Source: Candidatus Microgenomates bacterium
Lineage (GTDB): Bacteria > Patescibacteriota > Microgenomatia > UBA8517 > JACQJR01
Direction: 5' to 3'
Assembly (NCBI GenBank): GCA_016204995.1
Contig: JACQJR010000001.1
Span: 539,034 to 603,033 of the forward strand
Length of the DNA: 64,000 nt
Shown here one piece after another: positions 9,941-61,935 of this stretch. Under the pieces are notes generated by a model. It did no database searches. It was not told the origin of the DNA and saw nothing but the letters and a program-made list of their open reading frames with translations. A program made the translations under genes and the position numbers. Each line of letters begins with the position of its first letter. The first letter of the stretch is position 1.

Positions 9941-10010
9941 AGGTTAGATGTTAGAGCTTAGAAGTTAGAAATATTTACTCTCTAATCTCTAATTTCTAAA
10001 ATCTAATATC
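9941..10010. repeat. inverted simple-repeat element (ttagatgttagagcttagaagttagaaat ... ctctaatctctaatttctaaaatctaa)
   Basis: read directly; downstream of dehydrogenase gene; terminator-like. Confidence 0.65.
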
Positions 10011-17011: not shown

Positions 17012-18211
17012 GTGGTTAGTCTCCTTAAAATAAGTTTACTGCTAACAGTTTTTGCGTTACCCCTAATTTCTCCTTTTAATGCTTTTGGTTATGAGAAAGC
17101 TAAAGTAATAGTATTTCTTTTTCTTAATAGTTTTAATTTATTGTTATGGGTGCTTGCTTTATGGAAATATCCCAAGAAGATAAAAATTAAGTGGAATAAC
17201 TTAAAACTGGCAGGGTTAGTTTTTATTATAATTTTATTCATTGCTTCTCTAAGTGGCGTTGATCTATTAACTAGCTTAGTCGGCCGCGAGCCATACTTTC
17301 AAGGATGGGTAGTCTACAGCTATCTATTTACTTTTTATTTAATGGTTTCTTCAATAAAAATTCCTCTAAAAAATTGGGCGACAGTTTTAATAACTTCGGC
17401 CACCATAGTTTCTCTGATTGCTATTAAAGATTGGTTGCTGGTTTTTTTATTAAATATAAATTTAGCTACTTATGCCGGCCGAGTCGGTTCTACTTTTGGC
17501 CAGCCAAATTTTTATGCAGGTTTTCTATTATTGGCTTTGCCATTTCTAACTTTCTTAAAAATAAATAAATTAGCAAAAATTTTAGCAGCACTTATTTTAG
17601 GAACGGGGATAATATTAAGCGGATCGCGAATTGCCATTTTATTTTTACCATTTCTACTTTATTTTTGGCTGGTAATTAGTTTAAAAATTAATTTCAAAAA
17701 AGCGATAAAGGTTTTAGGAATAGTGATCACACTATTAATAATAGCCACGGGAATTTATCTATTGCCTCGTTACTTAGAAGATAGTTTTGGCAAAACAAAA
17801 AATTGGTATGACAGTTATAGCCCAGAAAGAAGAGAATATATTTGGCTGGAAAGTATAAATTTAATTAAAGAGAAATTTGTTTTAGGATATGGTTTAGAAA
17901 ATTTAGCAACCGTGTTTGGTAAAAATTTAAAACCGGAAATTCCCAACGGATTTCCCACCCATATTTTAAATGACATTAAAAATTTAACAGTTAATAGGAC
18001 TCATAATTATTTATTGGACTTGGCAATTTTCAGCGGTATTGGTGGTGTAATTAGTTATTTGGTAATACTCTGGTTAATATTCAAAAGAGCAAGCCAAAAA
18101 TTATTATTAATTCCTTTAATAATATATTTAATTTGGGTCCAATTTCAAAATCAATCAATAGTTCATCTGCTTTATTTTTGGCTGTTAGTAGGATTAATTG
18201 ACTCCGATTGA
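17012..18211 (+). CDS. O-antigen ligase / Wzy_C-family membrane protein
   Basis: 399 aa, ~10 TM; ILSGSRIAILFLPF resembles the GSRxA motif region of the O-antigen ligase family. Confidence 0.45.
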   Translation: MVSLLKISLLLTVFALPLISPFNAFGYEKAKVIVFLFLNSFNLLLWVLALWKYPKKIKIKWNNLKLAGLVFIIILFIASLSGVDLLTSLVGREPYFQGWVVYSYLFTFYLMVSSIKIPLKNWATVLITSATIVSLIAIKDWLLVFLLNINLATYAGRVGSTFGQPNFYAGFLLLALPFLTFLKINKLAKILAALILGTGIILSGSRIAILFLPFLLYFWLVISLKINFKKAIKVLGIVITLLIIATGIYLLPRYLEDSFGKTKNWYDSYSPERREYIWLESINLIKEKFVLGYGLENLATVFGKNLKPEIPNGFPTHILNDIKNLTVNRTHNYLLDLAIFSGIGGVISYLVILWLIFKRASQKLLLIPLIIYLIWVQFQNQSIVHLLYFWLLVGLIDSD

Positions 18212-18219
18212 ATCGGAGT
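18201..18219. repeat. palindrome actccgattgaatcggagt (CCGATTNAATCGG family)
   Basis: read directly; overlaps stop codon of 17012-18211; sister sites at 37936-37952, 39791-39809, 61216-61243. Confidence 0.8.
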
Positions 18220-18243
18220 TGATTCTGAAACCCAAATTGGGTC

Positions 18244-18271
18244 TTGACATGCTGGGGGGGGGAGTTAAATA
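18244..18271 (+). promoter_or_regulatory. sigma70-like promoter TTGACA-16-TAAATA
   Basis: cttgacatgctgggggggggagttaaata upstream of 18281 ORF. Confidence 0.4.
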
Positions 18272-18280
18272 TAAAAAGAG

Positions 18281-19321
18281 ATGGTAAATTCTCGCCAAAA
18301 AGGTTTTGCTCCAATCTTAATTTTACTTTTACTGCTAGGTGGTTTAGTAGTCGGCCTTTATCTGGTAAACCAAAGAACTAATCTTTTCCCATTCGCCTAT
18401 ATGCCTTCCAGGCCGATTAGCTGTGCGACTGATGCAGATTGTCTTCCTAATTATAAATGCCAAATCGATCCTGGGGTTAGTGGTGAGTGTATACCAATGA
18501 CACCTTCTCCTACGCCTAGACCTAAACCAACAACCACTCCTATTCCGACTCCTACGCCTGCAAATACAATTTCTGTTAAGCCTTCAGTGGTCACATCGGG
18601 AGATGATCTTATTGTTTCTTGGAATATCTCTAATGCTACCACTAAAGACTATATCAGAATTTTGACATCCGAGGGAAATCAGTATTTTGGTCTTGGTCCT
18701 TTGGGAATAAATCCAAGTAATAACTGTAATTTAAATAATATACCTGGTATAACTGCGCTCCCACAGGGAAGTTGTAAATTTACATCAGCCGCGATAGGTA
18801 GCGCTTTAGGAATATTTAGATTGGGCTATTTCAATCAAGGAGGAAGCTTGCTCACTAAAAGTGAGACATTTAGGGTTAATGCAGCATCATCGGGAGTTCT
18901 TACTGCAATCATAGTCAGTTCGCAAGTCCATTTGAGCTGGAATGGCATTAGTAATGCAACCACAAGCGATTATATTAATTACATTCACGTTAATGACTAT
19001 AGTGGTGCTGGAGTTCATACTTACTGGCCAACCAATAATTGTTCAATTTTCAGCGGTGGCACTACGCCAGTGCCTACGGGAAATTGTGATATAGAATTTC
19101 CGTTTTCTGGAGGAGATTATAGATTAGTTATGTCTAGTGATAACGGGGGTATTTTAGCAATTAGTAATAATATTACTATTCCACCCATATCTTTCGATGG
19201 TTTTAAAAAGGCTTATGGGGCGAAAAAGGGAGAAGCAAATTATGACGCACGATACGACGCTAATAATGACGGTAAGATAGATGTTTTTGATCTAATCCAA
19301 CTCCGTAGTCAATTTAAATAA
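18281..19321 (+). CDS. secreted/anchored protein with Cys-rich module, Pro/Thr linker and C-terminal dockerin-like Ca-binding repeat
   Basis: 346 aa; N-terminal TM ILILLLLLGGLVVGLYLV; TPSPTPRPKPTTTPIPTPTP linker; DANNDGKIDVFDLIQL matches DxNxDGxIDxxD. Confidence 0.5.
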   Translation: MVNSRQKGFAPILILLLLLGGLVVGLYLVNQRTNLFPFAYMPSRPISCATDADCLPNYKCQIDPGVSGECIPMTPSPTPRPKPTTTPIPTPTPANTISVKPSVVTSGDDLIVSWNISNATTKDYIRILTSEGNQYFGLGPLGINPSNNCNLNNIPGITALPQGSCKFTSAAIGSALGIFRLGYFNQGGSLLTKSETFRVNAASSGVLTAIIVSSQVHLSWNGISNATTSDYINYIHVNDYSGAGVHTYWPTNNCSIFSGGTTPVPTGNCDIEFPFSGGDYRLVMSSDNGGILAISNNITIPPISFDGFKKAYGAKKGEANYDARYDANNDGKIDVFDLIQLRSQFK

Positions 19322-22661: not shown

Positions 22662-22705
22662 AGCTTAGATTTTAGAGATTAGAACTTAGAAATTAGTTAA
22701 GGAAT
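22662..22705. repeat. 'tagaa' simple-repeat spacer (gagcttagattttagagattagaacttagaaattag)
   Basis: read directly downstream of nrdJ. Confidence 0.6.
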
Positions 22706-27995: not shown

Positions 27996-28090
27996 CAGAT
28001 AATCAGTGATCAGAAAACTCAGAAAGCCAGAAAATCTGAATGTCTGAATTTCTGATACTCCGGTATTCCGAGTTTTCCGGTTATCTGAAT
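27996..28090. repeat. imperfect inverted-repeat element of the 'cagaa/ttctg' family
   Basis: cagataatcagtgatcagaaaactcagaaagccagaaaatctgaa...ccgagttttccggttatctgaat; terminal cagataa/ttatctg inverted. Confidence 0.7.
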
Positions 28091-28136: not shown

Positions 28137-28212
28137 GGGTGCGTAGCTCAGCGGTTAGAGCGCCACTCTTATAAAGTGGATGTCCTTGGTTCAAATCCAA
28201 GCGCACCCACCA
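28137..28212 (+). tRNA. tRNA with anticodon UAU (reads AUA; tRNA-Ile2-like), CCA encoded
   Basis: manual fold: acceptor gggtgcg/cgcaccc, D-arm gctc-agcggtta-gagc, anticodon stem ccact/agtgg with loop cttataa, T-arm cttgg-ttcaaat-ccaag, discriminator A, cca. Confidence 0.65.
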
Positions 28213-28278
28213 AAATTGATTAATCGCAAGCGAAGCGAGTCCGCCTCTGACGGACTGCGATATAAAGGATTTATATTA

Positions 28279-29127
28279 ATGTCAGAGATTGGTTTTATCG
28301 GTTATGGCATCGTCGGTCAAGCCACAGGCAAGGGGTTGGCTCGCGGCGGCCACACTATTTATTCTTTTGATAAATACCGCGCTCATTCTCATTCTTTGGA
28401 AGAGGTAATAGATAAAAGTGAGTTTATTTTTATCTGCGTGCCCACCCCCATGTATCACGACCACTCGGGGATTGATTCTTCTATCGTAGATGCAGTAGTG
28501 GATGCCGTTGCTCCCCAGGTGGCCGGTACCAAGAAAGTTTTGATTATTAAGTCTACGGTTTTACCAGGTACTACGGCTCGTTATGCCAAAATTTATCCCA
28601 AAACTAATTTTGCCATGGTGCCGGAGTTTTTAACCGAGGCCAAACCGGAGTGGGATTTTCTCCATCCCTATCGGACGATTATCGGAGCCTTAGATAAAAA
28701 GATAGCTAATCGTCTGAAAAAATTACACACCTCGGCTTTGCCAGCCCAAACGCCTTTTTTTATGACCGATCCGACCAGTGCGGAGCTAGCCAAATACATG
28801 AGTAATGTCATGTTAGCTAGTAAAGTAATGTTAGCCAATGAGTTTTACGCCTTGGCCAAAGTCTTAAAGTCTAATTATGACCAAGTGCAGAAAATGGTAA
28901 CAGCTGATCCTCGGATCGGCACTCATTTAAAAGTACCAGGGCCGGATGGCGATTTAGGTTTTGGCGGCAAGTGTTTCCCCAAGGATATTGTGGCCCTACT
29001 TGGTTTGGGGAGGGAATTAAAAGTTGATCTTTCAGTTATGGAGACAATCTGGCGCAAAAACTTAAAAATTCGCAAAAATCACGATTGGAAAGAGATTAAA
29101 GGAGCAGTGACTAAGAAATTGACCTAA
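28279..29127 (+). CDS. UDP-glucose/GDP-mannose dehydrogenase-family protein (short form)
   Basis: N-terminal GFIGYGIVGQ Rossmann motif; catalytic GGKCFPKD; ORF-track start 28180 overlaps the tRNA, so the Met at 28279 with an upstream aaagga SD is used. Confidence 0.65.
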   Translation: MSEIGFIGYGIVGQATGKGLARGGHTIYSFDKYRAHSHSLEEVIDKSEFIFICVPTPMYHDHSGIDSSIVDAVVDAVAPQVAGTKKVLIIKSTVLPGTTARYAKIYPKTNFAMVPEFLTEAKPEWDFLHPYRTIIGALDKKIANRLKKLHTSALPAQTPFFMTDPTSAELAKYMSNVMLASKVMLANEFYALAKVLKSNYDQVQKMVTADPRIGTHLKVPGPDGDLGFGGKCFPKDIVALLGLGRELKVDLSVMETIWRKNLKIRKNHDWKEIKGAVTKKLT

Positions 29128-29200
29128 TTATTCTAATTAACCTAATTGACCTAAAATTTTAGAAATTAGAGCAATTAGAAATTAGAAATTTCTCTCTTAG
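29128..29200. repeat. 'tagaa' simple-repeat spacer (cctaattattctaattaacctaattgacctaaaattttagaaattagagcaattagaaattagaaatttc)
   Basis: read directly between dehydrogenase and recombinase genes. Confidence 0.6.
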
Positions 29201-30045
29201 AGTTCTTCCAGCTGATTAGTTTTACCTTTGGCCGGTTCTTTAATCAGAGAAAGATAACGTTCAGTGGTAGACAATCTTTTGTGACCGACAATTTTAGAGA
29301 GAGTGACTAAATCTACTCCACGGGTCAGTTGATGGACAATAAAAGTATTTCTGATATCGTTGACGGTAGCGTCTTCAACACCAGCTTCCACAAAGCAGCG
29401 TTCAATGGTAGAGCGGATGTTGCGGATTAGTAAGGGCCGGCCGGTTTTGGTGATAAAGAGATGTTTGGAATTTTGAGAGCCGCGAGTTTTTAAATAATTA
29501 TCAATGGTGGTTTTAAGATTGGAATGTAAGGGCAAAGTTCGATCTCCCACTTTAATTCCCCTTGGGGTGATGTCATCCAAAGTTAAGGCGGCCAATTCGC
29601 TGATTCTCATACCGGTTTGCAGCAAAATTTCCACAATGGCGGCAGTTCGGGGATCGCTTCTGGCTGCATCGCGTAAGGCTCGGTATTCTAAAACGGATAA
29701 AACGCGCGGTGCAGGCATTTGGTATTTAGGATGAGCTACCGAAAAAGCCGGGTCGCTGCCAATAAGTGATTTTTGTCTTAACCAGCGGAAAAAGCCCTTG
29801 ATGGCGTTAAGCTTGCGGGCCACGGATTTAGGGGTGTATTTTTTTTCAGCCAACTCGGTTAAAAATGACTCCAAATCAATGGCTAAAACGCTGTTGGCTT
29901 CGGTTTTACCCAGGCGGGCTAAAAATTCCGTCAGCTGCTCCAAATCCTTTTTGTAGGCTATAATAGTAGAGTCAGATTTCTTTGTCTCGCGCAGATAGGC
30001 AATAAAATCAAGCACCAAATCAGCTAGTAGAGTACTGTTTGCCAT
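29197..30045 (-). CDS. tyrosine site-specific recombinase, XerC/XerD family
   Basis: 282 aa; RISELAALTLDDI and C-terminal HxxR...LGHKRLSTTERYLS with catalytic Tyr; size fits chromosomal Xer. Confidence 0.8.
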   Translation of the reverse strand: MANSTLLADLVLDFIAYLRETKKSDSTIIAYKKDLEQLTEFLARLGKTEANSVLAIDLESFLTELAEKKYTPKSVARKLNAIKGFFRWLRQKSLIGSDPAFSVAHPKYQMPAPRVLSVLEYRALRDAARSDPRTAAIVEILLQTGMRISELAALTLDDITPRGIKVGDRTLPLHSNLKTTIDNYLKTRGSQNSKHLFITKTGRPLLIRNIRSTIERCFVEAGVEDATVNDIRNTFIVHQLTRGVDLVTLSKIVGHKRLSTTERYLSLIKEPAKGKTNQLEEL

Positions 30046-30077
30046 AAACCTATATAATATATACTATAGCATAATTT

Positions 30078-30437
30078 ATGAAATTAGTCAAACTAGCCGT
30101 AATTATAGTCAGTTTGGTGATTTCAGTGAGCCTGGTGCGGAGTATCGTAACTGTCCTGGGGGTGAAAGATCGTCTCCGCCAGGCCCAAGAAGAAGTAGCC
30201 AGCTTACAGAAAAAACAGGCCGATCTTGAGGCCAGACTCGTGGAAGCGACCAGTAGTACTACGATTGAGAAGGTGTTGCGGGATAAATTGGGTTTGGCCA
30301 AAAGTAATGAATATGTGGTAGTTTTACCTGATAATCCGGAATTATTAAGGAATTTGAGCCCGGAATTAAATAAAGAAGAGATTGAATCCGAGCCTGTTTT
30401 ACCTACTTGGCAGAAGTGGCTCGTGCTATTTTTTTAA
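30078..30437 (+). CDS. septum-formation initiator family protein (FtsB/DivIC-like)
   Basis: 119 aa; N-terminal TM, coiled coil, then IEKVLRDKLGLAKSNEYVVVLPD matching the FtsB/DivIC C-terminal motif. Confidence 0.55.
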   Translation: MKLVKLAVIIVSLVISVSLVRSIVTVLGVKDRLRQAQEEVASLQKKQADLEARLVEATSSTTIEKVLRDKLGLAKSNEYVVVLPDNPELLRNLSPELNKEEIESEPVLPTWQKWLVLFF

Positions 30438-30473
30438 CTACTCAATTTACTTCTTGACAAACAATTCATACAC

Positions 30474-30758
30474 ATGATAATATGTATGTGTATGTTAACT
30501 AAAAGAACTAACATTTTATTTGACCAAGAATTATGGAAGAAGCTTATTTCTCTTGCTGAGAAACGTAGTATTTCCATCGGCGAACTTGTAAGGACAGCCG
30601 TCAGAAAACAATATTTAAATGATATTGCTGAAGAGCAAAGGAAAGAGGCAATAGTAGGAATTAAAGCATTCAGAGAAAAATATGGAAAAACCGCAGGGGG
30701 AGGGGAAGATAGCGCTTTAATTATAAGAAGAATGCGTGATAGTCGGTATGGGAAATAA
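30474..30758 (+). CDS. ribbon-helix-helix antitoxin-like protein
   Basis: NILFDQELWKKLISLAEKRSISIGELVRTAVRKQYL RHH pattern; overlaps downstream PIN gene. Confidence 0.5.
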   Translation: MIICMCMLTKRTNILFDQELWKKLISLAEKRSISIGELVRTAVRKQYLNDIAEEQRKEAIVGIKAFREKYGKTAGGGEDSALIIRRMRDSRYGK

Positions 30759-31155
30759 AATCCTTGACACATCGGTTATCGCTAAATGGTTTTGTGAGGA
30801 AGAGGGAAGTGATCGAGCGCAGAAATATTTAGATGAGTTTGGTCAAGGTAAGTATGGAATAACTGTTCCCACGCTTCTTTTTTACGAAATTGGGAATATG
30901 CTGCTTAATAAAAAAATAGAAACAATAAGGGTAAGTGAAATTATGAGTCGTTTGCAGAATGTAAGTTTCAATATTGTTGATATTGGTTATGAAGCCTTTA
31001 GAAAAATATTTCAAAACGCACAGGAATTAAGTATTACCTTTTATGATGCTGCCTACGTTACTTTAATGCAAAAGGAAGACGCGGAATTTATCACTGCTGA
31101 TAGGAAACTTTATGAGAAATTGCATCGTAAATTCTCTGCCGTCACGCTTCTGTAA
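30736..31155 (+). CDS. PIN-domain toxin (VapC-like)
   Basis: 139 aa; ILDTSVIAKWF N-terminal PIN signature and conserved acidic residues. Confidence 0.65.
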   Translation: MIVGMGNKILDTSVIAKWFCEEEGSDRAQKYLDEFGQGKYGITVPTLLFYEIGNMLLNKKIETIRVSEIMSRLQNVSFNIVDIGYEAFRKIFQNAQELSITFYDAAYVTLMQKEDAEFITADRKLYEKLHRKFSAVTLL

Positions 31156-31188
31156 AGTTGTTAAAGGATTTAGGGTATTTGCGAATAG

Positions 31189-31761
31189 TCATTTCTGAAA
31201 AATTAAAGCAAGTACACTTATGACCAACGTAAGTGTTACAGCGATACCAATTGAGATCAAAGTTAAATAACCAAATCGTTTACTAATAGAGATTGTGTTT
31301 CTTAGATACTCTTTAGCTGTTCCTTTCCTTCCATGTTGTTTTATCTTTAATCCGACAGTTTGTATTCCTAGATATAACCCATATATTACCAAACAAATTA
31401 AGATTAGATAACTTAAAAACTCACCTATCGGATTTTTCCAGAACATGTCAAACGATTCTTTAAAGAAAAATATCCATATTAAAAGAGGTATGCTTAATAT
31501 AACCAGTGTGGCTTGTCCCCAATATTCATATGATTCTTCATCTCCACCATCTCTTAATTTATTAAGAAGTTTCATTTCTAATAGGATTAAAAATCCTAAA
31601 CCTATGATGCCACCAAGTAGTTTACCTGGAGTTAATGAAGCAAAGGGAGTATCAAGAAAATCCTTAACACCAGGATAAAGAAACAGTAATAAAATTAGTA
31701 TTGGTTGCCCAAATTTGCCTACTTTAATATATAATTTTCGGTCAAATTCATTATCTTTCAT
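31189..31761 (-). CDS. hypothetical membrane protein
   Basis: 190 aa, ~5 TM helices. Confidence 0.35.
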   Translation of the reverse strand: MKDNEFDRKLYIKVGKFGQPILILLLFLYPGVKDFLDTPFASLTPGKLLGGIIGLGFLILLEMKLLNKLRDGGDEESYEYWGQATLVILSIPLLIWIFFFKESFDMFWKNPIGEFLSYLILICLVIYGLYLGIQTVGLKIKQHGRKGTAKEYLRNTISISKRFGYLTLISIGIAVTLTLVISVLALIFQK

Positions 31762-31898
31762 AAATCTTTTACAAATATTATTACAACAATAATTAATTGT
31801 ATCCTCAATATTTGACCATAGTCAAGAAATAAGTCATGGTAATAATTCACTTATAATTATCACTATTTTATTCTAAAAGAATTTTATATTGCTGCTTA

Positions 31899-32003
31899 TT
31901 AGTCCTCTACGTCAATTGCCACCCCGCCTTCATTAATTTCTTCTTCACTAATATCAACAACAGTATTTTCTGTATTTTCGATAGGATTTCCTTCTAAATT
32001 CAT
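31899..32003 (-). CDS. 34-aa acidic peptide (MNLEGNPIENTENTVVDISEEEINEGGVAIDVED) with strong SD
   Basis: below ORF-track cutoff; aaaggtggtg SD 7 nt upstream of ATG on the minus strand. Confidence 0.25.
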   Translation of the reverse strand: MNLEGNPIENTENTVVDISEEEINEGGVAIDVED

Positions 32004-32024
32004 ATTTTTTCACCACCTTTCACG

Positions 32025-32056
32025 AAAAAGGGGAACAATATTGTTCCCCTTTTTAT
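32025..32056. terminator. bidirectional rho-independent terminator (aaaaa-ggggaacaa-ta-ttgttcccc-ttttt)
   Basis: perfect 9-bp GC-rich stem with A5 and T5 flanks; a second hairpin ggccagg-agtcgcg-cctggcc follows at 32058-32088. Confidence 0.75.
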
Positions 32057-32196
32057 CTTATGTTGCGGGGCCAGGAGTCGCGCCTGGCCTGGAAGATTAT
32101 GAGCCTTCCGTGCAACTCTACACTACCCCGCATGTACCTGAACATTATACCCTTTGAACTTTACAGAGTCAACATTTTTAGTTATAATTTGTAAGG

Positions 32197-32463
32197 GTGT
32201 TTGAGTACACGATACACGCTAGAAATAAATTTAGACGTAAGAAAATTAGAGAATTGAGGATTAAGGCCAAGATTGTAGAAAATGTAGTTATTAAACCGGA
32301 CGTAATAGATGAAGATAGATATCCCAGAATTGCGGTAGCAGCTATAAGTAAGAATTTGTCTTTAGTGGTAGTTTTCAGAGAAGTAGAAAAAGGGTGTAGA
32401 ATTATTACCTTTTTTCCAGCAGAAAGGGGTCGTTATGAAAGTAAAATATTACAAGAAGGATGA
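32197..32463 (+). CDS. DUF4258-family (RelE-fold) toxin-like protein
   Basis: 88 aa; YTIHARNKFRRKKI N-terminal HAxxR and ...VVVFREVEKGCRIITFF core. Confidence 0.45.
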   Translation: MFEYTIHARNKFRRKKIRELRIKAKIVENVVIKPDVIDEDRYPRIAVAAISKNLSLVVVFREVEKGCRIITFFPAERGRYESKILQEG

Positions 32464-32635
32464 TTTATTGGTAATTGAACTTTCCAGAAAGCCTTTTGAT
32501 GATGCGGAAATGGAAGGGGATTTTATTGTGCATTACTCCAAGGATAAGGAGCCAGTATCTATAGAAGTTTTAAACGCCAGTAAATTTCTCAAGGCTACCA
32601 GCAAAGCAGTGGGAACAAAACAATTAACTGTTTGA
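32435..32635 (+). CDS. DUF2283-family antitoxin-like protein
   Basis: 66 aa; MKVKYYKKDDLLVIELS resembles the DUF2283 MKITYDxEADALYIRL start; overlaps DUF4258 gene. Confidence 0.45.
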   Translation: MKVKYYKKDDLLVIELSRKPFDDAEMEGDFIVHYSKDKEPVSIEVLNASKFLKATSKAVGTKQLTV

Positions 32636-32642
32636 GGTGTAT

Positions 32643-32716
32643 GCCAGGGTAGCTCAGTTGGTTAGAGCACCGGATTCATAAACCGGCGATCGTGGGTTCG
32701 ACCCCCACCCCTGGTA
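32643..32716 (+). tRNA. tRNA with anticodon CAU (elongator Met, or Ile2 if lysidinylated); CCA not encoded
   Basis: manual fold: acceptor gccaggg/ccctggt (G1-U72), D-arm gctc-agttggtta-gagc, anticodon arm ccgga-ttcataa-accgg, T-arm gtggg-ttcgacc-cccac. Confidence 0.65.
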
Positions 32717-36894: not shown

Positions 36895-37971
36895 GTGTCT
36901 TCGCCGTACGCATGCTACAATTACTTCGTGAGTGATAAAAAACGACTGGTCTTAATTGATGGCAATGCCATTCTTCATCGGGCCTACCATGCTTTGCCGC
37001 CTTTAACTTCTCGGTCCGGCCAATTGGTGAATGCCGTCTATGGTTTTTGTGCGATGCTATTTAAAGTGGTAAATGACCTGCAGCCTGATTTTTTGGCTGT
37101 CACTTTTGATACACCTAAACCGACTTTTCGCCATGCCGCTTATGTTGGTTATCAAGCTCACCGGCCGCGGATGGAATCTGACCTATCAGATCAAATTGAA
37201 CTGGTGCATGAAGTAGTGCGGGCGGCTGATATTCCGATTTATGAAGAGCCGGGTTATGAGGCAGATGATGTAATTGGGACGCTTGCCATGCAAGCTGTTT
37301 CGGAGAATCAGGCTACTCAGAAAACTCAGAAAACTCAGAAAACCAGAAAGCCAGAAAGCCAGAAAGCCAGAATTTCTGATATTCAGAATCTCCGGTCCTC
37401 TGAGTCTTCCGAGTTTTCTGGTCCTCTGGAAGTAATCATAGTTTCCGGTGATCGGGATTTACTGCAATTAGTCAATGACCGTGTCAAGGTTTATATGCCG
37501 ATTAAAGGCGTTACCGAAGCTAAGTTATTTGGGACTGCCGAAGTAGAAGAAAGAATGGGGGTTAAACCCTCACAAATTGTGGACTTAAAAGCTTTGATGG
37601 GCGATGCTTCTGATAATTATCCTGGCATTCCTGGCATTGGCCCTAAAACTGCTGCTATCTTAATTGGCAAATTTGGCACCTTAGAAAATATTTTTAGCCA
37701 GCTTGATAAAATTGATGATAAGACCGTGGCAAAACTGGCGGCGGGACATGAGAGTGGAGTGCTGTCTAAAAAATTAGCCCGAATTGAAATTAATGCTCCC
37801 GTCACTTTAGATTTAGAAAAAGTCCGGTTGACTCCCCTAGTTGGTAATAAAAACTTAATTGAGAAACTAGCAGAATTTGGTTTTAAAAGTTTAACGGCCC
37901 GGGCCCGGGGGATAGTTAAGAAAGAAGACGATCAATCCCGATTAAATCGGGACCAGTTGAAGTTGATATAA
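36895..37971 (+). CDS. 5'-3' exonuclease (Pol I N-terminal/FEN-like domain protein)
   Basis: LVLIDGNAILHRAYHALPP and acidic metal-binding motifs; contains a ~40-aa low-complexity insertion encoded by repeat 37311-37430. Confidence 0.8.
   Translation: MSSPYACYNYFVSDKKRLVLIDGNAILHRAYHALPPLTSRSGQLVNAVYGFCAMLFKVVNDLQPDFLAVTFDTPKPTFRHAAYVGYQAHRPRMESDLSDQIELVHEVVRAADIPIYEEPGYEADDVIGTLAMQAVSENQATQKTQKTQKTRKPESQKARISDIQNLRSSESSEFSGPLEVIIVSGDRDLLQLVNDRVKVYMPIKGVTEAKLFGTAEVEERMGVKPSQIVDLKALMGDASDNYPGIPGIGPKTAAILIGKFGTLENIFSQLDKIDDKTVAKLAAGHESGVLSKKLARIEINAPVTLDLEKVRLTPLVGNKNLIEKLAEFGFKSLTARARGIVKKEDDQSRLNRDQLKLI
37311..37430. repeat. ~120-bp 'cagaa/ttctg'-family repeat element embedded in-frame in the exonuclease CDS
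   Basis: ctcagaaaa x3, ccagaaag x3, then tctgatattcagaatctccggtcctctgagtcttccgagttttctgg; encodes QATQKTQKTQKTRKPESQKARISDIQNLRSSESSEFSGPLE. Confidence 0.75.
37936..37952. repeat. palindrome tcccgattaaatcggga (CCGATTNAATCGG family) inside the exonuclease 3' end
   Basis: read directly; encodes SRLNRD. Confidence 0.75.
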
Positions 37972-39193: not shown

Positions 39194-40147
39194 ATGCCGG
39201 AGCTTCCAGAAGTAGAAACTATCCGCGGCGGACTTGAGAAGAAAATTGTTGGGTTGACGATTAAAAAGGTTGATATTTGTGCTCCTAAAAGCTTCATCGG
39301 CAAAGCGCAGGAAGTCCAAGGCAAGAAAGTAATTAAGGTATGGCGCAGAGCCAAAATGTTGGGAATAGATCTAACGACGGGTCCTGCCGGGGGCTCGTCC
39401 CGCCCGATGTCCTCGCTGAACGCTGCGGGCACTCGTCGGGACTCCCTCCGCCCCCGTCACCCGTCGCTTGCACTTTTGTTTCATCTGAAAATGACCGGGC
39501 AGCTGGTTTTGGATGATAGAAAGTGGAAAGTGGAAGGTGGAAGGATGGTTGGGGGACACCCCACTCCTGATATGCGGGATGCAATGCCTAATTCTCACAC
39601 GAGGGTAGTTTTTTCTTTTAGTGATGGATCCCGTCTTTATTTTAATGACCAAAGGCGTTTTGGGTGGGTGAAAGTAGTTCAGAGTTCGGAGTTAGGAGTT
39701 CAGGGTTTGTTTGAGAAATTAGGGCCGGAGCCGTTAGAAAAAGAATTTACTTGGCAGATTCTCAAGCAGAATTTATTAAAACATAAATCCACCCCGATTA
39801 AATCGGGGTTAATGGATCAACAAGTGGTGTCCGGAGTGGGGAATATTTACGCTAATGAAGCGTGTTTTAATGCTAGGATAGATCCTAGAGCTAGGAGCTT
39901 AGAGCTTAGTAACGCACAGTTTAAAAAATTGCATCAAGGTGTTGTTAAAGCCCTTCGCGACGGTATTAAACATGGTGGTTCAACCAGAGCTCATTTTGTA
40001 GACAGCGAAGGGCATCGGGGTTATTTTTTAGATTATGCCTATGTTTATGGCCGGGACGAGCATCCTTGTAAAATTTGCCAAACAGAAATTAAAAAAGTGA
40101 CTTTAGGCGGCCGCGGTACCTACTTTTGTCCCGCCTGCCAGCGCTAG
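39194..40147 (+). CDS. mutM: formamidopyrimidine-DNA glycosylase
   Basis: starts MPELPEVE (catalytic Pro2); C-terminal CKICQ...CPACQR zinc finger; carries at least three repeat-derived in-frame insertions; ORF-track start 39176. Confidence 0.85.
   Translation: MPELPEVETIRGGLEKKIVGLTIKKVDICAPKSFIGKAQEVQGKKVIKVWRRAKMLGIDLTTGPAGGSSRPMSSLNAAGTRRDSLRPRHPSLALLFHLKMTGQLVLDDRKWKVEGGRMVGGHPTPDMRDAMPNSHTRVVFSFSDGSRLYFNDQRRFGWVKVVQSSELGVQGLFEKLGPEPLEKEFTWQILKQNLLKHKSTPIKSGLMDQQVVSGVGNIYANEACFNARIDPRARSLELSNAQFKKLHQGVVKALRDGIKHGGSTRAHFVDSEGHRGYFLDYAYVYGRDEHPCKICQTEIKKVTLGGRGTYFCPACQR
39376..39465. repeat. ~90-bp GC-rich palindromic element in-frame inside fpg (termini gacgggt / acccgtc; internal gtcccg / cgggac)
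   Basis: base composition contrasts sharply with the flanking gene; encodes TTGPAGGSSRPMSSLNAAGTRRDSLRPRHPSLA; 90 bp is a multiple of 3. Confidence 0.6.
39791..39809. repeat. palindrome accccgattaaatcggggt (CCGATTNAATCGG family) inside fpg
   Basis: read directly; encodes TPIKSG. Confidence 0.8.
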
Positions 40148-40185: not shown

Positions 40186-41289
40186 ATGCTATTAAAAAAT
40201 ATCCATCTGCAAAATTTTCGCAGCTTTAATAAAGTTTCTTTTAATTTTTCTGCTACCACCACAGCTATTGTCGGTCCTAATACGGCTGGTAAAACTAATC
40301 TTCTAGAAGCAGTTTATTTATTGGCTACCGGTAAATCTTTTCGGGCCAGCCTGGAGGAAGAAATGATTCAAACTGGTACTGAATTTAGCAGGGTTAAGGG
40401 TGCGATAACCCTGCCTGCTGGCGCAGACAAGCCTGCGCAGGCAGGTAGTGAAACTTTAGAAGTAATTTTAACTCGCGGTGAAGTGGGGGGAGAAAGAGTC
40501 AACCGAAAGATGTTAAAGGTTAATAATTTAGGTAAAAGATTGGTGGATTATCAGGGGATTTTGCGGGTGGTGATTTTCGGCCCCTGGGATTTGGAATTAA
40601 TTATTGATTCACCCTCTGTCAGGCGTAAATTTTTAGACAGCGTCCTTTTGCAAGTAGACCGGGAGTATCGGAGATCAGTGATGGCCTATGAGAAGGGATT
40701 AAGATCCAGGAATAGACTCTTGGAAAGAATTAGAGAGGAAAATTTAAGCCGGTCGCAACTGCTGTTTTGGGATAAATTGCTGATCAAAAACGGCGATTAC
40801 ATCTCCCAAAAAAGGGAAGAGCTGATTGATTTTATTAATCAAACAAAACCTTTAAGTAACGAGCAATTCCAATTAATTTATGATAAAAGTGCTATTTCCG
40901 AGGGTAGACTGGCTCAATATAGCCAAGAAGAAGTGGCGGCGGCGACTACTTTAGTCGGTCCACACAGAGATAATATTATATTCCAAGTTCTAAATTCTAA
41001 GCTCCAAACTCTAAACTTAGAAGTTTATGGATCGCGCGGGGAACAGCGGATGTGCGCTTTATGGATCAAGCTAGCTGAACTGGCTTTTATTGAACAGGCC
41101 ACCGCCACACGTCCGGTCTTGCTGTTGGATGATATTTTTTCCGAGCTGGATCACGAGCATCGGGAAGTTGTGATGAATGTTGTAGGAGAGCAGCAAACAA
41201 TTCTGACTACCGCCGATCCGCATATGATTAGCGGCCTGCCTGCGCAGGCAGGTTTAAAAAATGGATTAGAGAAGATTGAATTGGGCTAG
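40186..41289 (+). CDS. recF: DNA replication and repair protein RecF
   Basis: N-terminal Walker A GPNTAGKTNLLEA; C-terminal ABC signature and LLLDDIFSELD Walker B; contains two copies of the palindrome cctgc(c)tgcgcaggcagg. Confidence 0.85.
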   Translation: MLLKNIHLQNFRSFNKVSFNFSATTTAIVGPNTAGKTNLLEAVYLLATGKSFRASLEEEMIQTGTEFSRVKGAITLPAGADKPAQAGSETLEVILTRGEVGGERVNRKMLKVNNLGKRLVDYQGILRVVIFGPWDLELIIDSPSVRRKFLDSVLLQVDREYRRSVMAYEKGLRSRNRLLERIREENLSRSQLLFWDKLLIKNGDYISQKREELIDFINQTKPLSNEQFQLIYDKSAISEGRLAQYSQEEVAAATTLVGPHRDNIIFQVLNSKLQTLNLEVYGSRGEQRMCALWIKLAELAFIEQATATRPVLLLDDIFSELDHEHREVVMNVVGEQQTILTTADPHMISGLPAQAGLKNGLEKIELG

Positions 41290-47406: not shown

Positions 47407-47520
47407 GAAATTTCTAATTTTCAATTTCTAATTTCTAATGAATTTTCAATGATTAAATGTTTAAAACATTAAAAAATTAAAAATTGATTGAAAATTGTAG
47501 ATTAAAAATTAAACCTATGT
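47403..47520. repeat. AT-rich 'ttcta/tagaa' simple-repeat spacer
   Basis: gaaatttctaattttcaatttctaatttctaatgaattttcaatgatt...aaaattaaaaattgattgaaaattgtagattaaaaattaaa. Confidence 0.6.
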
Positions 47521-58836: not shown

Positions 58837-59016
58837 ATGGATCCAAATCAAAATCAACCAGCTCAACCAGTTAATCCGCCAGCAGATACTCCTGTTGCAC
58901 CGAGTACGCCTGTCCCGACTGGGTCGGGACCAGCAGCACCAACCATGCCAGAACCAACAACACCTCCTACTGCTGAAGAACCAGAAACAGAGCAGCCCGC
59001 TCAACCAGCAGCGTAG
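58837..59016 (+). CDS. 59-aa Pro/Thr/Gln-rich peptide (MDPNQNQPAQPVNPPADTPVAP...)
   Basis: below ORF-track cutoff; gagagggggtg SD upstream; low complexity. Confidence 0.2.
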   Translation: MDPNQNQPAQPVNPPADTPVAPSTPVPTGSGPAAPTMPEPTTPPTAEEPETEQPAQPAA

Positions 59017-59125: not shown

Positions 59126-60090
59126 ACGACATAGCAGTTATTGGTTCTGGTCCAGCTTCTCTTACGGCGGCCATTTACACCAGTCGCGGCGCCGCTAAAA
59201 CCGTCATTTTGGCAGGCAGTAATTGGGGTGGTCAGTTAATGCTGACGACAGAAGTGGAAAATTTCCCCGGCTTTGATCATATTTTAGGGCCGGAGTTAAT
59301 GGCCAAAATGAAGAATCATGCTGTCAAATTCGGGTCAGAATTTATAGGAGCAGATGTAGAAGAAGTAGATTTTAGCCGGCAGCCGTTTACTCTGAAAGCT
59401 AATGGAAAGGATTATCAGACCAAGTCGGTAATTATTACCACCGGCGCCAATGCTCGTTGGTTGAATCTGCCATCCGAGCGGGAGTTTATCGGCCGCGGAG
59501 TTTCCTCTTGCGCTCCTTGCGACGCCCCCTTTTTTAAGGAAAAAAACGTCATTGTAGTGGGCGGGGGAGATAGTGCTATGGAAGAAGCGCTGGTGTTGAC
59601 TAAATATGCTGCGAGTGTCACGATTGTTCATCGCCGCAGTAACTTTCGCGCTTCCAAAATTATGCAAAGCAAGGTGCTAAATCATCCCAAAATTAAAGTA
59701 ATTTGGGATACGGAAGTTACGGAAATTTTAGGGACAGATAAGGTTAGCGGGGTCAAATTAAAAAATGTTAAAACCGGCGAAACTCGTGACATGCCGATTG
59801 ATGGAGTTTTTGTCGCCATCGGCCATGATCCCAATACCAAACTGTTTGCGGGAAAGTTAGAGCTAGATGAAAAAGGATACATCAAGATAATTTCTAATTC
59901 CAAATTTCTAATTTCTAATGAAAAAGGGGAAGAGGTGGGAAACAGATTTTCTACGATGACTTCGATAGAAGGAATTTTTGCGGCCGGAGATGTGCATGAT
60001 TTCCGCTACCGCCAAGCGATTACCGCCGCCGGCTTTGGCTGTCAGGCAGCAATGGATGCGCTGTCGTGGCTTGAGGAGGTTCGTCCATGA
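59113..60090 (+). CDS. trxB: thioredoxin-disulfide reductase
   Basis: FAD motif VIGSGPAS, redox-active CAPCD, NADPH motif VVGGGDSAMEEA; in-frame repeat at 59888-59920. Confidence 0.85.
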   Translation: MPNTYDIAVIGSGPASLTAAIYTSRGAAKTVILAGSNWGGQLMLTTEVENFPGFDHILGPELMAKMKNHAVKFGSEFIGADVEEVDFSRQPFTLKANGKDYQTKSVIITTGANARWLNLPSEREFIGRGVSSCAPCDAPFFKEKNVIVVGGGDSAMEEALVLTKYAASVTIVHRRSNFRASKIMQSKVLNHPKIKVIWDTEVTEILGTDKVSGVKLKNVKTGETRDMPIDGVFVAIGHDPNTKLFAGKLELDEKGYIKIISNSKFLISNEKGEEVGNRFSTMTSIEGIFAAGDVHDFRYRQAITAAGFGCQAAMDALSWLEEVRP

Positions 60091-60782: not shown

Positions 60783-61193
60783 TTAGGATTTTTTAATTAC
60801 TACATATCCCGTCCCAGTTAGCATAATTGCTAATAGCCCCATCACCCACAAGGGGAATCCTGTTTTTGGTAGTTGGCTGACCGGCGATGGTTTGGGGGTA
60901 GCAGTGGCTTTGGGGCTGGCCCCGATTTTATCGGGGCTGGTAGTCGGTAAAGTAAAGCCCGGATAAGGAGTTGGTTTAACAGTAGAAGTTGGCAAAGGAT
61001 AGAAAGTAGGAGTGGGTTTGACAGTGGAAGATTTAGTGGCATTTTGCCACAAAGCAATTAAAACCACAATAATAACTAAAACTACCAGGGCGCCAAGAGC
61101 GATAGAGGCAATGTTGCCAAAGCGGGGAGAGAGGGAAGGTAATTTGGATCGGTCAAAGCCCTCAAACATATTTTGAGGCAGAGGTAGAGTCAA
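60783..61193 (-). CDS. Pro/Thr-rich surface protein with C-terminal LPXTG-type sorting signal
   Basis: 136 aa; N-terminal TM; C-terminus ...QLPKTGFPLWVMGLLAIMLTGTGYVVIKKS = LPKTG + hydrophobic helix + basic tail. Confidence 0.55.
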   Translation of the reverse strand: MTLPLPQNMFEGFDRSKLPSLSPRFGNIASIALGALVVLVIIVVLIALWQNATKSSTVKPTPTFYPLPTSTVKPTPYPGFTLPTTSPDKIGASPKATATPKPSPVSQLPKTGFPLWVMGLLAIMLTGTGYVVIKKS

Positions 61194-61215: not shown

Positions 61216-61243
61216 GTCAAGCCCCGATCAAATCGGGGTTGAC
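61216..61243. repeat. palindrome gtcaag-ccccgatcaaatcgggg-ttgac (CCGATTNAATCGG family), intergenic
   Basis: read directly between the LPXTG-protein gene and the response regulator. Confidence 0.8.
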
Positions 61244-61266: not shown

Positions 61267-61935
61267 ATGAACAGCATCCTAATTGTAGAAGATGATCAAG
61301 GAGTGCAAAAATTCTTAAAAGAATTTTTGCTGGATAACGGTTTTTCAGTCAGAATGGTCGGTGACGGGTTAGAAGCAATGGCACAAATTGAAAAGTTACC
61401 CCCGGATGTTGTTATTTTGGATTTAGGTTTGCCTAATATGAGCGGAGAAACAGTTTGCACCGAGGTCAAGAAACAATACCCTCATTTACCAATTATTATT
61501 TTAACAGCCCGCGACACCACTTCAGATATCGTTCAGGGACTCAACTTAGGAGCAGATGACTATATGACTAAACCTTTTGTGGCTGATGAGTTACTGGCGA
61601 GGATCAAGGCTCGGCTGCGAGCTGATGGTTTGGCTACTACTAGGGTTAAAATAGCAGATTTAGAACTGGATAAAAATCTGATAGAGGTCAAGCGCAATGG
61701 TAAATTAATTTCGTTAACTCCGCAAGAATTTAAACTACTGGAATATTTAATGAATAACGCCGGCCGTATTTTGACTCGGGATATGATTTTAGATCGGGTT
61801 TGGTCTTATTCAGCGGAGATAGAAAGTAGGGCAGTAGATGTTTATATTGGATATCTACGTAAGAAAATTGATAATGGTTCTAAAAAGAAGCTAATTCATT
61901 CAGTTAGAGGCTTCGGTTACGTAATTAAAGAATAA
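61267..61935 (+). CDS. OmpR/PhoB-family response regulator
   Basis: REC domain with phospho-acceptor Asp (VVILDLGLP) and winged-helix DNA-binding domain. Confidence 0.85.
   Translation: MNSILIVEDDQGVQKFLKEFLLDNGFSVRMVGDGLEAMAQIEKLPPDVVILDLGLPNMSGETVCTEVKKQYPHLPIIILTARDTTSDIVQGLNLGADDYMTKPFVADELLARIKARLRADGLATTRVKIADLELDKNLIEVKRNGKLISLTPQEFKLLEYLMNNAGRILTRDMILDRVWSYSAEIESRAVDVYIGYLRKKIDNGSKKKLIHSVRGFGYVIKE

Follow-up and report, generated by a model that had tools for sequence, protein, structure and literature searches.

A 17-bp palindrome in the window

The window is a 64-kb stretch of DNA in which the sequence CCGAT-N3-ATCGG occurs exactly at five sites (18204, 37938, 39794, 60922, and 61224). 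The repeat is a 17-bp palindrome made up of 7-bp arms and a 3-nt centre, with the consensus CCCCGAT-TNA-ATCGGGG. The arms, comparable to the terminal inverted repeats of MITEs, reach 8 bp where the centre is T-N-A. Their complementarity is perfect in all window copies, and variant copies have both arms altered jointly. By chance, ~0.025–0.09 sites would be expected in the window; a first-order Markov model predicts 0.025 against the five seen, and 100 dinucleotide shuffles produced a mean of 0.09 strand-matches against eight. These values bear out the strongly non-random occurrence claimed in the preliminary description. All four sites listed there were found at their coordinates and in the contexts given, but the count was too low, as a fifth exact match (60922–60934) and a diverged copy (58912–58930) had been overlooked.

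Of the six copies in the window, four are contained entirely in ORFs, where they occupy three different frames, and another overlaps a stop codon. The latter, copy 1 (18198–18222, previously listed as 18201–18219), consists of CTCCGATTGAATCGGAG (18202–18218) between two TTGA tetranucleotides (at 18198 and 18219), a perfect 4-bp target-site duplication. Its central TGA is now the stop codon of a Wzy_C-type ORF (17012–18211), which would end in ...GLIDSETQIGS* instead of ...GLIDSD* if 21 bp were removed. The DNA hairpin of this copy has a folding energy of -7.6 kcal/mol (z = -4.8). Copy 2 (37936–37952, TCCCGATTAAATCGGGA) is located in the last 12 codons of a 5'-3' exonuclease ORF (36895–37971), in the C-terminal tail of the protein (…DDQSRLNRDQLKLI*). 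Its flanks, TCAA and CCAG, form an imperfect duplication, and its pairing is retained because both outermost arm bases are altered together (T…A). Copy 3 (39791–39812) reads A-CCCCGATTAAATCGGGG-T followed by TTAA and is within fpg (39194–40147).

Copy 4 (60916–60940) has a second perfect 4-bp duplication, with CCCCGATTTTATCGGGG (60920–60936) between CTGG at 60916 and CTGG at 60937. It is found in a minus-strand ORF for an LPXTG-type surface protein (60783–61193), adds the residues S-P-D-K-I-G-A to a Pro/Thr-rich linker, and is the same in three independent Logan contigs. Copy 5 (61216–61243, with CCCCGATCAAATCGGGG at 61222–61238) is intergenic, between the divergent genes for the LPXTG protein and an OmpR-type response regulator (61267–61935). 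It is flanked by GTCAAG and TTGAC, inverted repeats instead of direct ones, so that the hairpin extends over 12 bp with a single bulge (-11 kcal/mol, z = -5.7). The sequence GTCCCGACTGGGTCGGGAC at 58912–58930, in a small Pro-rich ORF (58838–59016), is probably a diverged copy of the palindrome in which the innermost T:A pair has become C:G on both arms; its flanks (CCTG and CCAG) are identical at three of four positions. Perfect duplications are missing from copies 2, 3, and 5, half of the six in the window.

The flanking sequences in the window (TTGA, CTGG, TCAA/CCAG, TCCA/TTAA, and CAAG/TTGA) have nothing in common, and alignment of ±40 bp around the six copies revealed no conservation beyond the palindrome. 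The 17 bp are therefore the whole repeat and not the core of a larger MITE. Independent Logan contigs from four sequencing runs have 100% identity across copies 1, 2, 4, and 5, and the palindromes are thus not an assembly artefact. Presence/absence polymorphism in the source population was not seen, all four runs being identical. A scan of the window at Rfam gathering thresholds identified two tRNAs and no family match for the palindrome. A second recurring sequence, the 14-mer ACTTTAGATTTAGA, has two copies in two adjacent penicillin-binding-protein genes and represents ordinary coding similarity.

Copies in related loci and metagenomes

We searched for the repeat in 1.4 Mb (1.39 Mb) of loci from related Daviesbacteria, members of the candidate phyla radiation (CPR), in which Fpg is at most 66% identical to the Fpg of the window. 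The perfect consensus 17-mer has six copies in these loci, with none expected, and two-mismatch variants occur 10 times against 2.4 expected. Eight of the 10 variants are perfectly paired (CTCCGAT/ATCGGAG, TCCCGAT/ATCGGGA, CCCCGAC/GTCGGGG, and CCCCAAT/ATTGGGG), and paired arm variants are found repeatedly, at separate loci. At four loci, the copies are bordered on both sides by perfect 4-bp direct repeats: L008 (TAAA), L032 (ATTA), L038 (TTGA), and L060 (TCAG). The copy at L038, CCCCGAC…GTCGGGG, is related to the diverged window copy at 58912–58930.

An independent metagenome scan produced the same pattern. Identical 4-mers abut both ends of 29 of 128 exact 17-mers, compared to 0–3 at shifted offsets and 2 of 131 in viral contigs used as a control (binomial P ~7e-27). 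A target-site duplication of fixed length, as is typical of MITEs, is thus present at two window copies, four copies in relatives, and 29 of 128 metagenomic copies. TTGA or its complement TCAA makes up 17 of the 35 distinct duplications and is dominant among the metagenome flanks. Every copy with a duplication has 7-3-7 geometry, and a search of the unbiased Daviesbacteria set for loops of 0–2 and 4–7 nt with 4-bp duplications identified no more family members. The centre base of the 17-mer varies among copies, and no link between the centre tetranucleotide and the duplication was seen by eye.

In related Daviesbacteria, comparison with orthologues shows that the 17-bp unit and one 4-bp repeat together form an exact insertion of 21 bp, or seven codons, in CarA, a membrane protein, and an MBL-like protein. 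CarA at L060 has TS[APIESGS]GEVVFNT where seven orthologous loci have TTSGEVVFNT. Orthologues and paralogues show an exact seven-residue gap opposite GGYL[VYSDKIG]VYQ at L008 and FLI[NPDLIGV]NGV at L037, and a DPDLIG segment in MurC (L322) is missing from 116 of 120 homologues. Twelve of the 35 copies with duplications are within plausible ORFs. Recognisable hosts, as read from the translations, are of the housekeeping type (MurC, ATP synthase gamma, Obg, L7/L12, prepilin, and CarA), and the inserted peptide is …PRLNRG…, …PDLIGV…, or …TPIKSG…, depending on the frame. Copies are also nested: removal of 21 bp at L037 regenerates CCCCGATTAGATCGGGG, and at L032 the sequence reads directly as a third copy containing two copies.

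Some occurrences of the 17-mer are not insertions. In unrelated DNA, the same sequence also forms the stem of ordinary terminators, between runs of A and T, or caps longer repeat hairpins.

A putative ultra-small insertion element

The palindromes are likely copies of a non-autonomous, non-coding, ultra-small insertion element, a palindrome of 17 bp. The duplications and the comparisons with orthologues show that the element enters DNA with a 4-bp target duplication, that TTGA is preferred, and that one event adds 17 + 4 = 21 bp, or seven codons. This length plausibly allows copies to persist not only in spacers and promoter regions but also inside protein-coding genes. Existing copies serve as targets, as the nested arrangements show. 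Other small hairpins are possibly targets too; the signal for pre-existing hairpins is weak, with a stem of at least 5 bp at 6 of 37 sites and at 7.5% of random positions.

Insertion would involve a 4-bp staggered cut of the double-stranded target by a factor supplied in trans. The symmetrical element would probably be recognised as a dyad or a hairpin, which would explain why the variants found all keep arm complementarity. No transposase domain and no RAYT (IS200/IS605-type Y1 transposase) domain was identified by Pfam in the ~50 window ORFs scanned. In 2.2 Mb of loci there was no cognate insertion sequence with matching ends and, separate full copies aside, no pair of CCCCGAT…ATCGGGG sequences 25–4000 bp apart sharing a duplication. 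The mechanism is uncertain because, to our knowledge, no transposase substrate is as short as a 17-bp duplex. A single-strand model in the style of IS200/IS605, with TTGA as target and right-end cleavage site, was rejected because flanks other than TTGA are also duplicated on both sides and the element lacks strand asymmetry.

The element is most simply viewed as a selfish passenger and ranks among the smallest apparently mobile DNA units observed in bacteria. In the window it would have created a stop codon (copy 1), inserted seven residues into one protein (copy 4) and probably a second (copy 2), substituted two residues of Fpg (copy 3), and placed a stable hairpin in a promoter region (copy 5), all as side effects.

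The copy in fpg differs from a simple insertion. It translates as T-P-I-K-S-G-L, and the length of the protein is unchanged relative to its homologues. At this position, all 64 fpg orthologues encode P-[VI]-K-V/A-A and none encodes S-G; the palindrome is absent from the orthologous position in the 64 relatives. Copy 3 and a plausible TPIKVAL ancestor are separated by ~5 nucleotide changes, all towards the palindrome. A model of insertion at TTAA followed by a 21-bp deletion yields the observed 48 nt of fpg exactly, and copy 3 would fit such an insertion followed by deletion between 11-bp repeats. The element may have inserted at TTAA four codons downstream of the native TPIK-coding stretch, which would already have matched 11 nt of it. 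Deletion between the two resulting 11-bp direct repeats, exactly 21 bp apart, would then have restored the protein length and changed V-A to S-G. Against the insertion-element reading, copies 2, 3, and 5 lack a perfect duplication, and the fpg copy requires this additional deletion step, which we infer.

More speculatively, Daviesbacteria and perhaps other CPR bacteria might possess a previously unrecognised mechanism that writes a 17-bp palindromic duplex into 4-bp staggered, TTGA-like breaks, the duplex being far below the size that any known transposase synaptic complex could use. This would define a new class of mobile DNA, a "nano-transposon" that diversifies housekeeping proteins by heptapeptide insertions, a somewhat unlikely prospect in our judgment. 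Candidate routes would be break-and-join capture of self-annealed hairpin oligonucleotides or the action of a dyad-recognising nuclease/ligase.

Alternative explanations

The insertion element was weighed against four other readings of the repeat. It is unlikely that the 17-mers are excision footprints instead of units that move themselves. Such scars would be left behind by a larger DNA transposon that ends in CCCCGATT… and duplicates 4 bp of its target, and each would be composed of the duplication, ~8 nt of each terminal inverted repeat, and the duplication again. The arrangement of the copies, with two short inverted termini enclosed by direct repeats, resembles such a footprint, and the variable centre base is what a repaired junction would leave, but the length is uniform, with 7-3-7 geometry wherever a duplication is present and no family members with other loop lengths. 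A full-length element with such termini was not found in the 2.2 Mb, paired arm variants recur across loci, and nested copies would require that insertion and excision had happened several times within the same few bases. The preliminary description had offered several roles, of which a very small MITE alone fits the evidence; an operator or nucleoid-protein site, an uptake sequence, and a restriction-modification target do not explain the duplications or insertions and are a poor match for where, and how often, the copies occur. For an operator or nucleoid-protein site, a dimeric protein would bind a 5-3-5 or 7-3-7 dyad and selection would keep the sites. The dyad symmetry, the position of copy 5 in a divergent promoter region beside a response-regulator gene, and the many reconstructed targets that read TTGAC(A), similar to a -35 box, are consistent with this reading. 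We nevertheless regard it as quite improbable, since it leaves the direct 4-bp repeats, the 21-bp insertions relative to orthologues, and the nesting unexplained, and a protein site would not be expected to show paired, symmetric changes in its two halves. The four copies inside ORFs, in three frames, and a fifth on a stop codon also argue against it, as does the lack of a conserved site at orthologous positions in the 64 fpg loci. Copy positions are heterogeneous, whereas an operator would keep a consistent position relative to promoters. A binding site and an insertion element are not mutually exclusive because a mobile element could carry such a site.

RNA hairpins that evolved separately at each site, as intrinsic terminators or as stabilising or processing signals, would account for the stability of the hairpins and for the location of copies 1 and 2 at the 3' ends of genes. 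In AT-rich contigs from phages and metagenomes, this stem is bordered by runs of A and T and looks like a bidirectional terminator, and some of these unrelated stems have the form of a Rho-independent terminator. The window copies do not: no T-tract comes after any of them, copies 3 and 4 sit in the middle of genes, copy 5 precedes both of the genes that it separates, and no Rfam family matches. Independent evolution would yield neither target duplications nor identical 17-mers, and we regard this origin as very improbable. A DNA uptake sequence, built up by biased uptake and recombination like the DUS of Neisseria and the USS of Haemophilus, is the least probable reading and an extremely remote one. 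CPR bacteria carry competence genes, and the motif is over-represented and found within genes, including two for DNA repair (the exonuclease and fpg). DUS and USS are dense (~1 per kb), oriented, non-palindromic 9–12-mers that arise by substitution, whereas the repeat described here is palindromic and without orientation, its copies originate as insertions with target duplications, and its density is low, at ~1 per 13 kb in the window (5–6 copies in 64 kb) and ~1 per 170 kb in relatives (~8 copies in 1.39 Mb).

If the insertion-element reading is true, the lower size limit of mobile DNA that generates target-site duplications in bacteria falls to 17 bp, and the mechanistic problem becomes that of an enzyme inserting 17 bp with a fixed 4-bp stagger and a preference for TTGA. 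Streamlined, symbiont-like CPR genomes would gain in-frame heptapeptides, new stop codons, and local sequence replacements, with effects on essential proteins (CarA, MurC, ATP synthase gamma, Obg, L7/L12, pilin, and Fpg). A 17-mer with identical abutting 4-mers is a simple signature that any MAG can be screened for and tallied; it would account for small indels in alignments of CPR proteins that have so far gone unexplained, and could provide strain-level markers.

Comparison with known systems

A full-text literature search returned nothing on the palindrome sequence itself or on palindromic insertions in CPR bacteria. MITEs and Rickettsia palindromic elements (RPEs) resemble the Daviesbacteria unit in having terminal inverted repeats, a target-site duplication, non-coding sequence, and stem-loop potential, and in-frame insertion into unrelated genes is also known for RPEs (PMC3184786, PMC10969869). 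MITEs are generally <200 bp, with some of ~400 bp, and RPEs are ~150 bp (PMC3184786, PMC10969869). MITEs have a core between their inverted repeats (PMC3184786), whereas the 17 bp found here are taken up by 7–8 bp at each end, leaving no core.

REPs and REPINs, which are mobilised by RAYT, are also short GC-rich hairpin repeats, and some REPs are intragenic, often in replication or repair genes, and can provide stop codons (PMC3733652). REPs are imperfect palindromes of 21–65 bp with a GTAG or CGTC tag at one end; they are mostly extragenic and often in inverted pairs, and target duplications have not been reported for them (PMC3184786, PMC3733652). In contrast, the Daviesbacteria unit lacks a GTAG/CGTC tag, has a perfect dyad and a 4-bp duplication, and occurs only as single units that in the window are mostly (four of six) inside ORFs. 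Like the Daviesbacteria unit, mitochondrial GC clusters (yeast GC42) and the repetitive hairpin-forming elements (RHEs) of sponges have constrained stem positions, form merged or nested units, sometimes insert into genes for proteins or rRNA, and have no known mechanism of movement (PMC4478555, PMC2800124). They differ in being organellar, ~30–84 bp in length, and flanked by 2–3 bp duplications. [quoted passage not shown]

The closest precedent is the group of cyanobacterial small dispersed repeats (SDRs). Elhai et al. reportedly described these in 2008 as 21–27 nt hairpins with compensatory changes and nested self-insertions. Both systems comprise tiny non-coding dispersed repeats with compensated hairpins and self-nesting that are sometimes found inside genes and are taken to be mobile, with no enzyme known for either. 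The 21-bp inserted length, the paired arm changes, and the nesting at L032 and L037 match the SDR type, a resemblance in kind only; we know of no sequence relation between SDRs and the Daviesbacteria palindrome. In cyanobacteria, HIP1 is used as an insertion site by SDR5 (PMC5861425, PMC3116915). SDRs belong to cyanobacteria (Nostocaceae) rather than CPR bacteria, and set beside them the Daviesbacteria unit is distinguished by a perfect 17-bp palindrome, a measurable 4-bp duplication, a preference for TTGA, and many copies that are exact seven-codon insertions in housekeeping proteins. SDRs posed a similar problem in 2008, and the Daviesbacteria unit would add a second, independent system for addressing it, one in which target duplications can be measured.

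Occurrence and anatomy of the palindrome

The source host belongs to the Daviesbacteria/Microgenomates group of the candidate phyla radiation, and the nearest homologues of its Fpg (MBI4059202.1) carry the name Candidatus Daviesbacteria. Matches to CCGATNNAATCGG occur in the window at 18204, 37938, 39794, 60922, and 61224. These give eight strand-matches, compared to a mean of 0.09 in 100 dinucleotide-preserving shuffles of the window; CCGAT-N3-ATCGG is present at five sites, compared to 0.025 in a Markov control. The preliminary description had listed four palindromes. All four, with their contexts, were correct on re-checking, but the count overlooked the site at 60922 and a diverged copy at 58912–58930 (copy 6). 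Logan contigs from four sequencing runs have 100% identity to the window over copies 1 (18202–18218), 2 (37936–37952), 4 (60920–60936), and 5 (61222–61238), which excludes assembly artefacts as the source of the palindromes. No polymorphic site of the element was seen in these contigs. The finding is real: palindromes are unusually dense in the window, the 64 kb over which the source genome was seen, and are present in several Daviesbacteria.

Outside the palindrome, the window copies share no sequence. The conserved unit is 17 bp, with 7-bp arms and a 3-nt centre (consensus CCCCGAT-TNA-ATCGGGG). The window and 80 related Daviesbacteria loci fetched via Fpg alignment (1.45 Mb total) contain six sequences with no mismatch to this consensus (0 expected), two with one mismatch (0.2 expected), and ten with two (2.4 expected). 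Eight of the ten two-mismatch copies pair perfectly, i.e., their arms are altered jointly (CTCCGAT/ATCGGAG, TCCCGAT/ATCGGGA, CCCCGAC/GTCGGGG, CCCCAAT/ATTGGGG). Perfect 3-nt-loop hairpins in these sequences most often have the CCGAT stem, and folding of the copies as single-stranded DNA gives −6.5 to −11 kcal/mol (z −3 to −5.7). Between them, the window copies occupy three reading frames and both coding strands, and the constraint is therefore on nucleic acid, not protein. In the related locus L079, one match encodes ADLIG in a transporter and is a coding coincidence, in line with the ~0.6 matches expected by chance across the relatives' DNA.

Target duplications, 21-bp gains, and nesting

Copy 1 reads TTGA-CTCCGATTGAATCGGAG-TTGA and copy 4 reads CTGG-CCCCGATTTTATCGGGG-CTGG; three of the six copies in the window have no clean duplication. 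A blind search of the 1.45 Mb for 7-3-7 palindromes of any sequence, bordered directly by identical 4-mers, returned eight cases, compared to ~1.7 expected. Six belong to the CCCCGAT family: window copies 1 and 4, and copies in the related loci L008 (TAAA), L032 (ATTA), L038 (TTGA), and L060 (TCAG). Comparison with orthologues identified gains of exactly 21 bp, or seven codons, in L060, L008, and L037. A CarA-like protein in L060 reads TS[APIESGS]GEVVFNT where seven other loci have TTSGEVVFNT, the inserted DNA being CCCCGATTGAATCGGGG plus TCAG. The bracketed residues of a membrane protein in L008 (GGYL[VYSDKIG]VYQ) and an MBL-like protein in L037 (FLI[NPDLIGV]NGV) correspond to 7-residue gaps in the comparison. 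In silico removal of 21 bp at copy 1 restores the ORF end …GLIDSETQIGS followed by the stop, and at copy 4 it removes SPDKIGA from a Pro/Thr-rich linker. Copies are also nested: a 21-bp deletion in L037 regenerates CCCCGATTAGATCGGGG, and the loop and arm of one copy in L032 hold two further copies.

A CCAG flank is common to three window copies (37936–37956, 58913–58933, and 60916–60940): it lies to the right of copies 2 and 6, and in copy 4 it is the duplication as read on the minus strand. An outer T…A arm variant is likewise common to copies 2 and 6. These similarities could be coincidental, or they could hint that a flanking tetranucleotide can travel with the element.

Metagenome survey and target preference

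We searched public metagenome contigs for CCCCGATTNAATCGGGG and identified at least 120 loci, with 128 analysable occurrences among the matches listed. Identical 4-mers exactly abut both ends in 29 of these 128 (binomial P ~7e-27), whereas offsets shifted by 1–6 bases gave only 0–3 matches and a viral-contig control gave 2 of 131. Among the matches listed, TTGA or its complement TCAA accounts for 17 of 35 distinct duplications, most others are one base off TTGA, and reconstructed empty sites are frequently TTGAC(A). The centre base has no correlation with target orientation, as expected of a symmetrical double-stranded unit. Contigs bearing duplicated copies have a G+C content of 33–47%, and several matches come from 0.1-µm groundwater fractions, e.g., Hainich contigs. 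About one-third of the listed copies with duplications are inside plausible ORFs, with host proteins recognised from their translations as MurC, ATP synthase gamma, Obg, L7/L12, and prepilin. The DPDLIG segment of the MurC copy (L322) is absent from 116 of 120 homologues, the nearest of which are Daviesbacteria proteins.

Three other classes make up the remaining metagenome and phage occurrences: ordinary terminator stems bordered by runs of A and T, the tips of longer hairpins from bigger repeat families, and chance coding matches. The CCCCGATTNAATCGGGG stem tips longer hairpins in two widespread families, GGATT-…-AATGAC and GTCATTGCGAG…CTCGCAATGAC (metagenome loci L226, L235, L248, L270, L285, L296, L323; L204, L222, L223, L228, L236, L303). 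In L236, an ATTGCT/AGCAAT stem carries it in a CCGG loop and CCGG is duplicated, suggesting that the element can enter the hairpin loops of other repeats. Targets fall in pre-existing hairpins at 16% of sites versus 7.5% of random positions; a preference for such targets (e.g., the CarA CCACCTC/GAGGTGG stem or CCGG in the ATTGCT/AGCAAT stem) is suggestive but weak.

The copy in fpg

The copy in fpg (39791–39812) involves no length change. The window protein reads KHKS-TPIKSGL-MDQ, where 64 Fpg orthologues have …[MQT]P[VI]K[VA]A[IL]… and none has S-G. CCGATTAAA is already supplied by the native P-I-K codons, and a TPIKVAL ancestor, the state present in L064, differs from the window by about five nucleotide changes, all toward the palindrome. 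From this sequence, we infer insertion followed by repeat-mediated deletion. Insertion at a TTAA four codons downstream would leave an 11-bp sequence (CCCCGATTAAA) directly repeated at a spacing of exactly 21 bp, and deletion between the repeats would restore the length and replace V-A with S-G. This model yields the observed sequence exactly, and the right flank is TTAA, which is also found as a duplication elsewhere. Alternatively, another copy may have served as the template for short-patch conversion.

Elsewhere in fpg, a segment with 73% G+C (39375–39475; genome, 41%) codes for ~30 extra residues (…GPAGGSSRPMSSLNAAGTRRDSLRPRHPS…) in a loop with no counterpart in many homologues. Different insertions occupy this position in others, e.g., PANAGIQ…LDSRLRGND, which is composed of two hairpins (TCCCTGCgaatGCAGGGA, ATTCCCGCctacGCGGGAAT). 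The loop appears to be a hotspot at which larger palindromic repeats insert in frame.

Other repeats in the window and related loci

An 18-bp perfect palindrome, CCTGCCTGCGCAGGCAGG, is near the 3′ end of recF (41235–41252 in 40186–41289), and a related imperfect palindrome (…CCTGCCTGCTGGCGCAGACAAGCCTGCGCAGGCAGG…) is in its 5′ part (40412–40445); these may represent a second intragenic palindromic repeat family. Further 17-bp 7-3-7 palindromes of unrelated sequence occur in relatives (L012 2100, L071 9303, L057 11681, L008 17999; L028 14499; L012 10674). Some have abutting 3–4-bp direct repeats, such as TTTG-ACCAAGTctgACTTGGT-TTTG and GAA-GCCAAGTcagACTTGGC-GAA, and the 17+4 architecture may therefore extend beyond the CCCCGAT family.

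At 18244–18280, a G9 homopolymer (18254–18262) separates TTGACA and TAAATA hexamers directly upstream of an ORF (18281–19321) and 32 nt downstream of the right duplication of copy 1 (18219–18222), an arrangement characteristic of a putative phase-variable promoter spacer. The A/T-rich motif TTAGAAATTAG recurs at 9988–10000, 22686–22696, 29159–29190, 47409–47436, and 59889–59916, mostly in intergenic spacers, together with the heptamer AGAAATT in short tandem form, (AGAAATT)2. Tandem heptamers are a frequent setting of small dispersed repeats in cyanobacteria. Two tRNA genes (28137–28209 and 32643–32716) flank a lower-G+C stretch within 28137–32716 that contains a tyrosine recombinase (29197–30045, minus strand) and several small ORFs without a family match; this stretch is possibly an integrated element or what remains of one. 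Short tandem repeats at 37300–37380 (CAGAAAACTCAGAAA, CAGAAAGCCAGAA) produce a low-complexity QKTQKTQKT… insertion between the N-terminal and C-terminal domains of the 5′-3′ exonuclease; a similar string is found at 28010–28035.

Mechanism and alternative explanations

The best explanation of the palindromes is an ultra-small palindromic insertion element that duplicates 4 bp of its target. The unit is a discrete 17-bp dyad with a fixed 4-bp duplication, a preference for TTGA, and a net gain of 21 bp; existing copies are reused as targets, and only arm variants that preserve pairing survive. A trans-acting activity would recognise the element as a dyad or hairpin, cut duplex DNA with a 4-bp stagger, and join the element in. 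Window genes include a Xer-like tyrosine recombinase, an ATP-dependent DNA ligase, and RecF. There was no transposase domain in ~50 window ORFs, and 2.2 Mb of sequence contained no longer element that shares the termini. The mechanism of insertion is potentially novel.

Reading the palindromes as operators, uptake sequences, or terminators accounts for some positions but leaves the duplications, 21-bp gains, and nesting unexplained. Operators are further opposed by a lack of conservation at orthologous positions, uptake sequences by a far lower density than is usual for them, and terminators by the absence of a T-tract after any window copy. Origin of the 17-bp units as excision footprints is disfavoured by the invariant 7-3-7 geometry and by copies nested in copies. 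Two observations speak against an IS200/IS605-type single-strand model: flanks other than TTGA are duplicated at both ends, and the element has no strand asymmetry.

Comparison with known elements

A full-text literature search found neither the 17-bp sequence nor such elements in CPR bacteria in any paper searched. Closest in kind are the small dispersed repeats of cyanobacteria, as reportedly described by Elhai et al. in 2008. That study is cited in PMC5861425 and PMC3116915. Like MITEs, the 17-bp unit has inverted termini, a target duplication, and no coding capacity; it differs in size, MITEs being described at tens to hundreds of bp (PMC3184786, PMC10969869). No cognate insertion sequence was found in 2.2 Mb. 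Unlike REP/REPIN sequences, it has a duplication and lacks a GTAG/CGTC tag and a predominantly extragenic location (PMC3733652, PMC3184786). In-frame gene invasion is shared with Rickettsia palindromic elements, which are ~150 bp (PMC10969869), and short flanking duplications and stem constraint are shared with mitochondrial GC clusters and hairpin elements (PMC4478555, PMC2800124). We rate the 17-bp element as a variant that belongs with very small mobile repeats and MITE-like elements.
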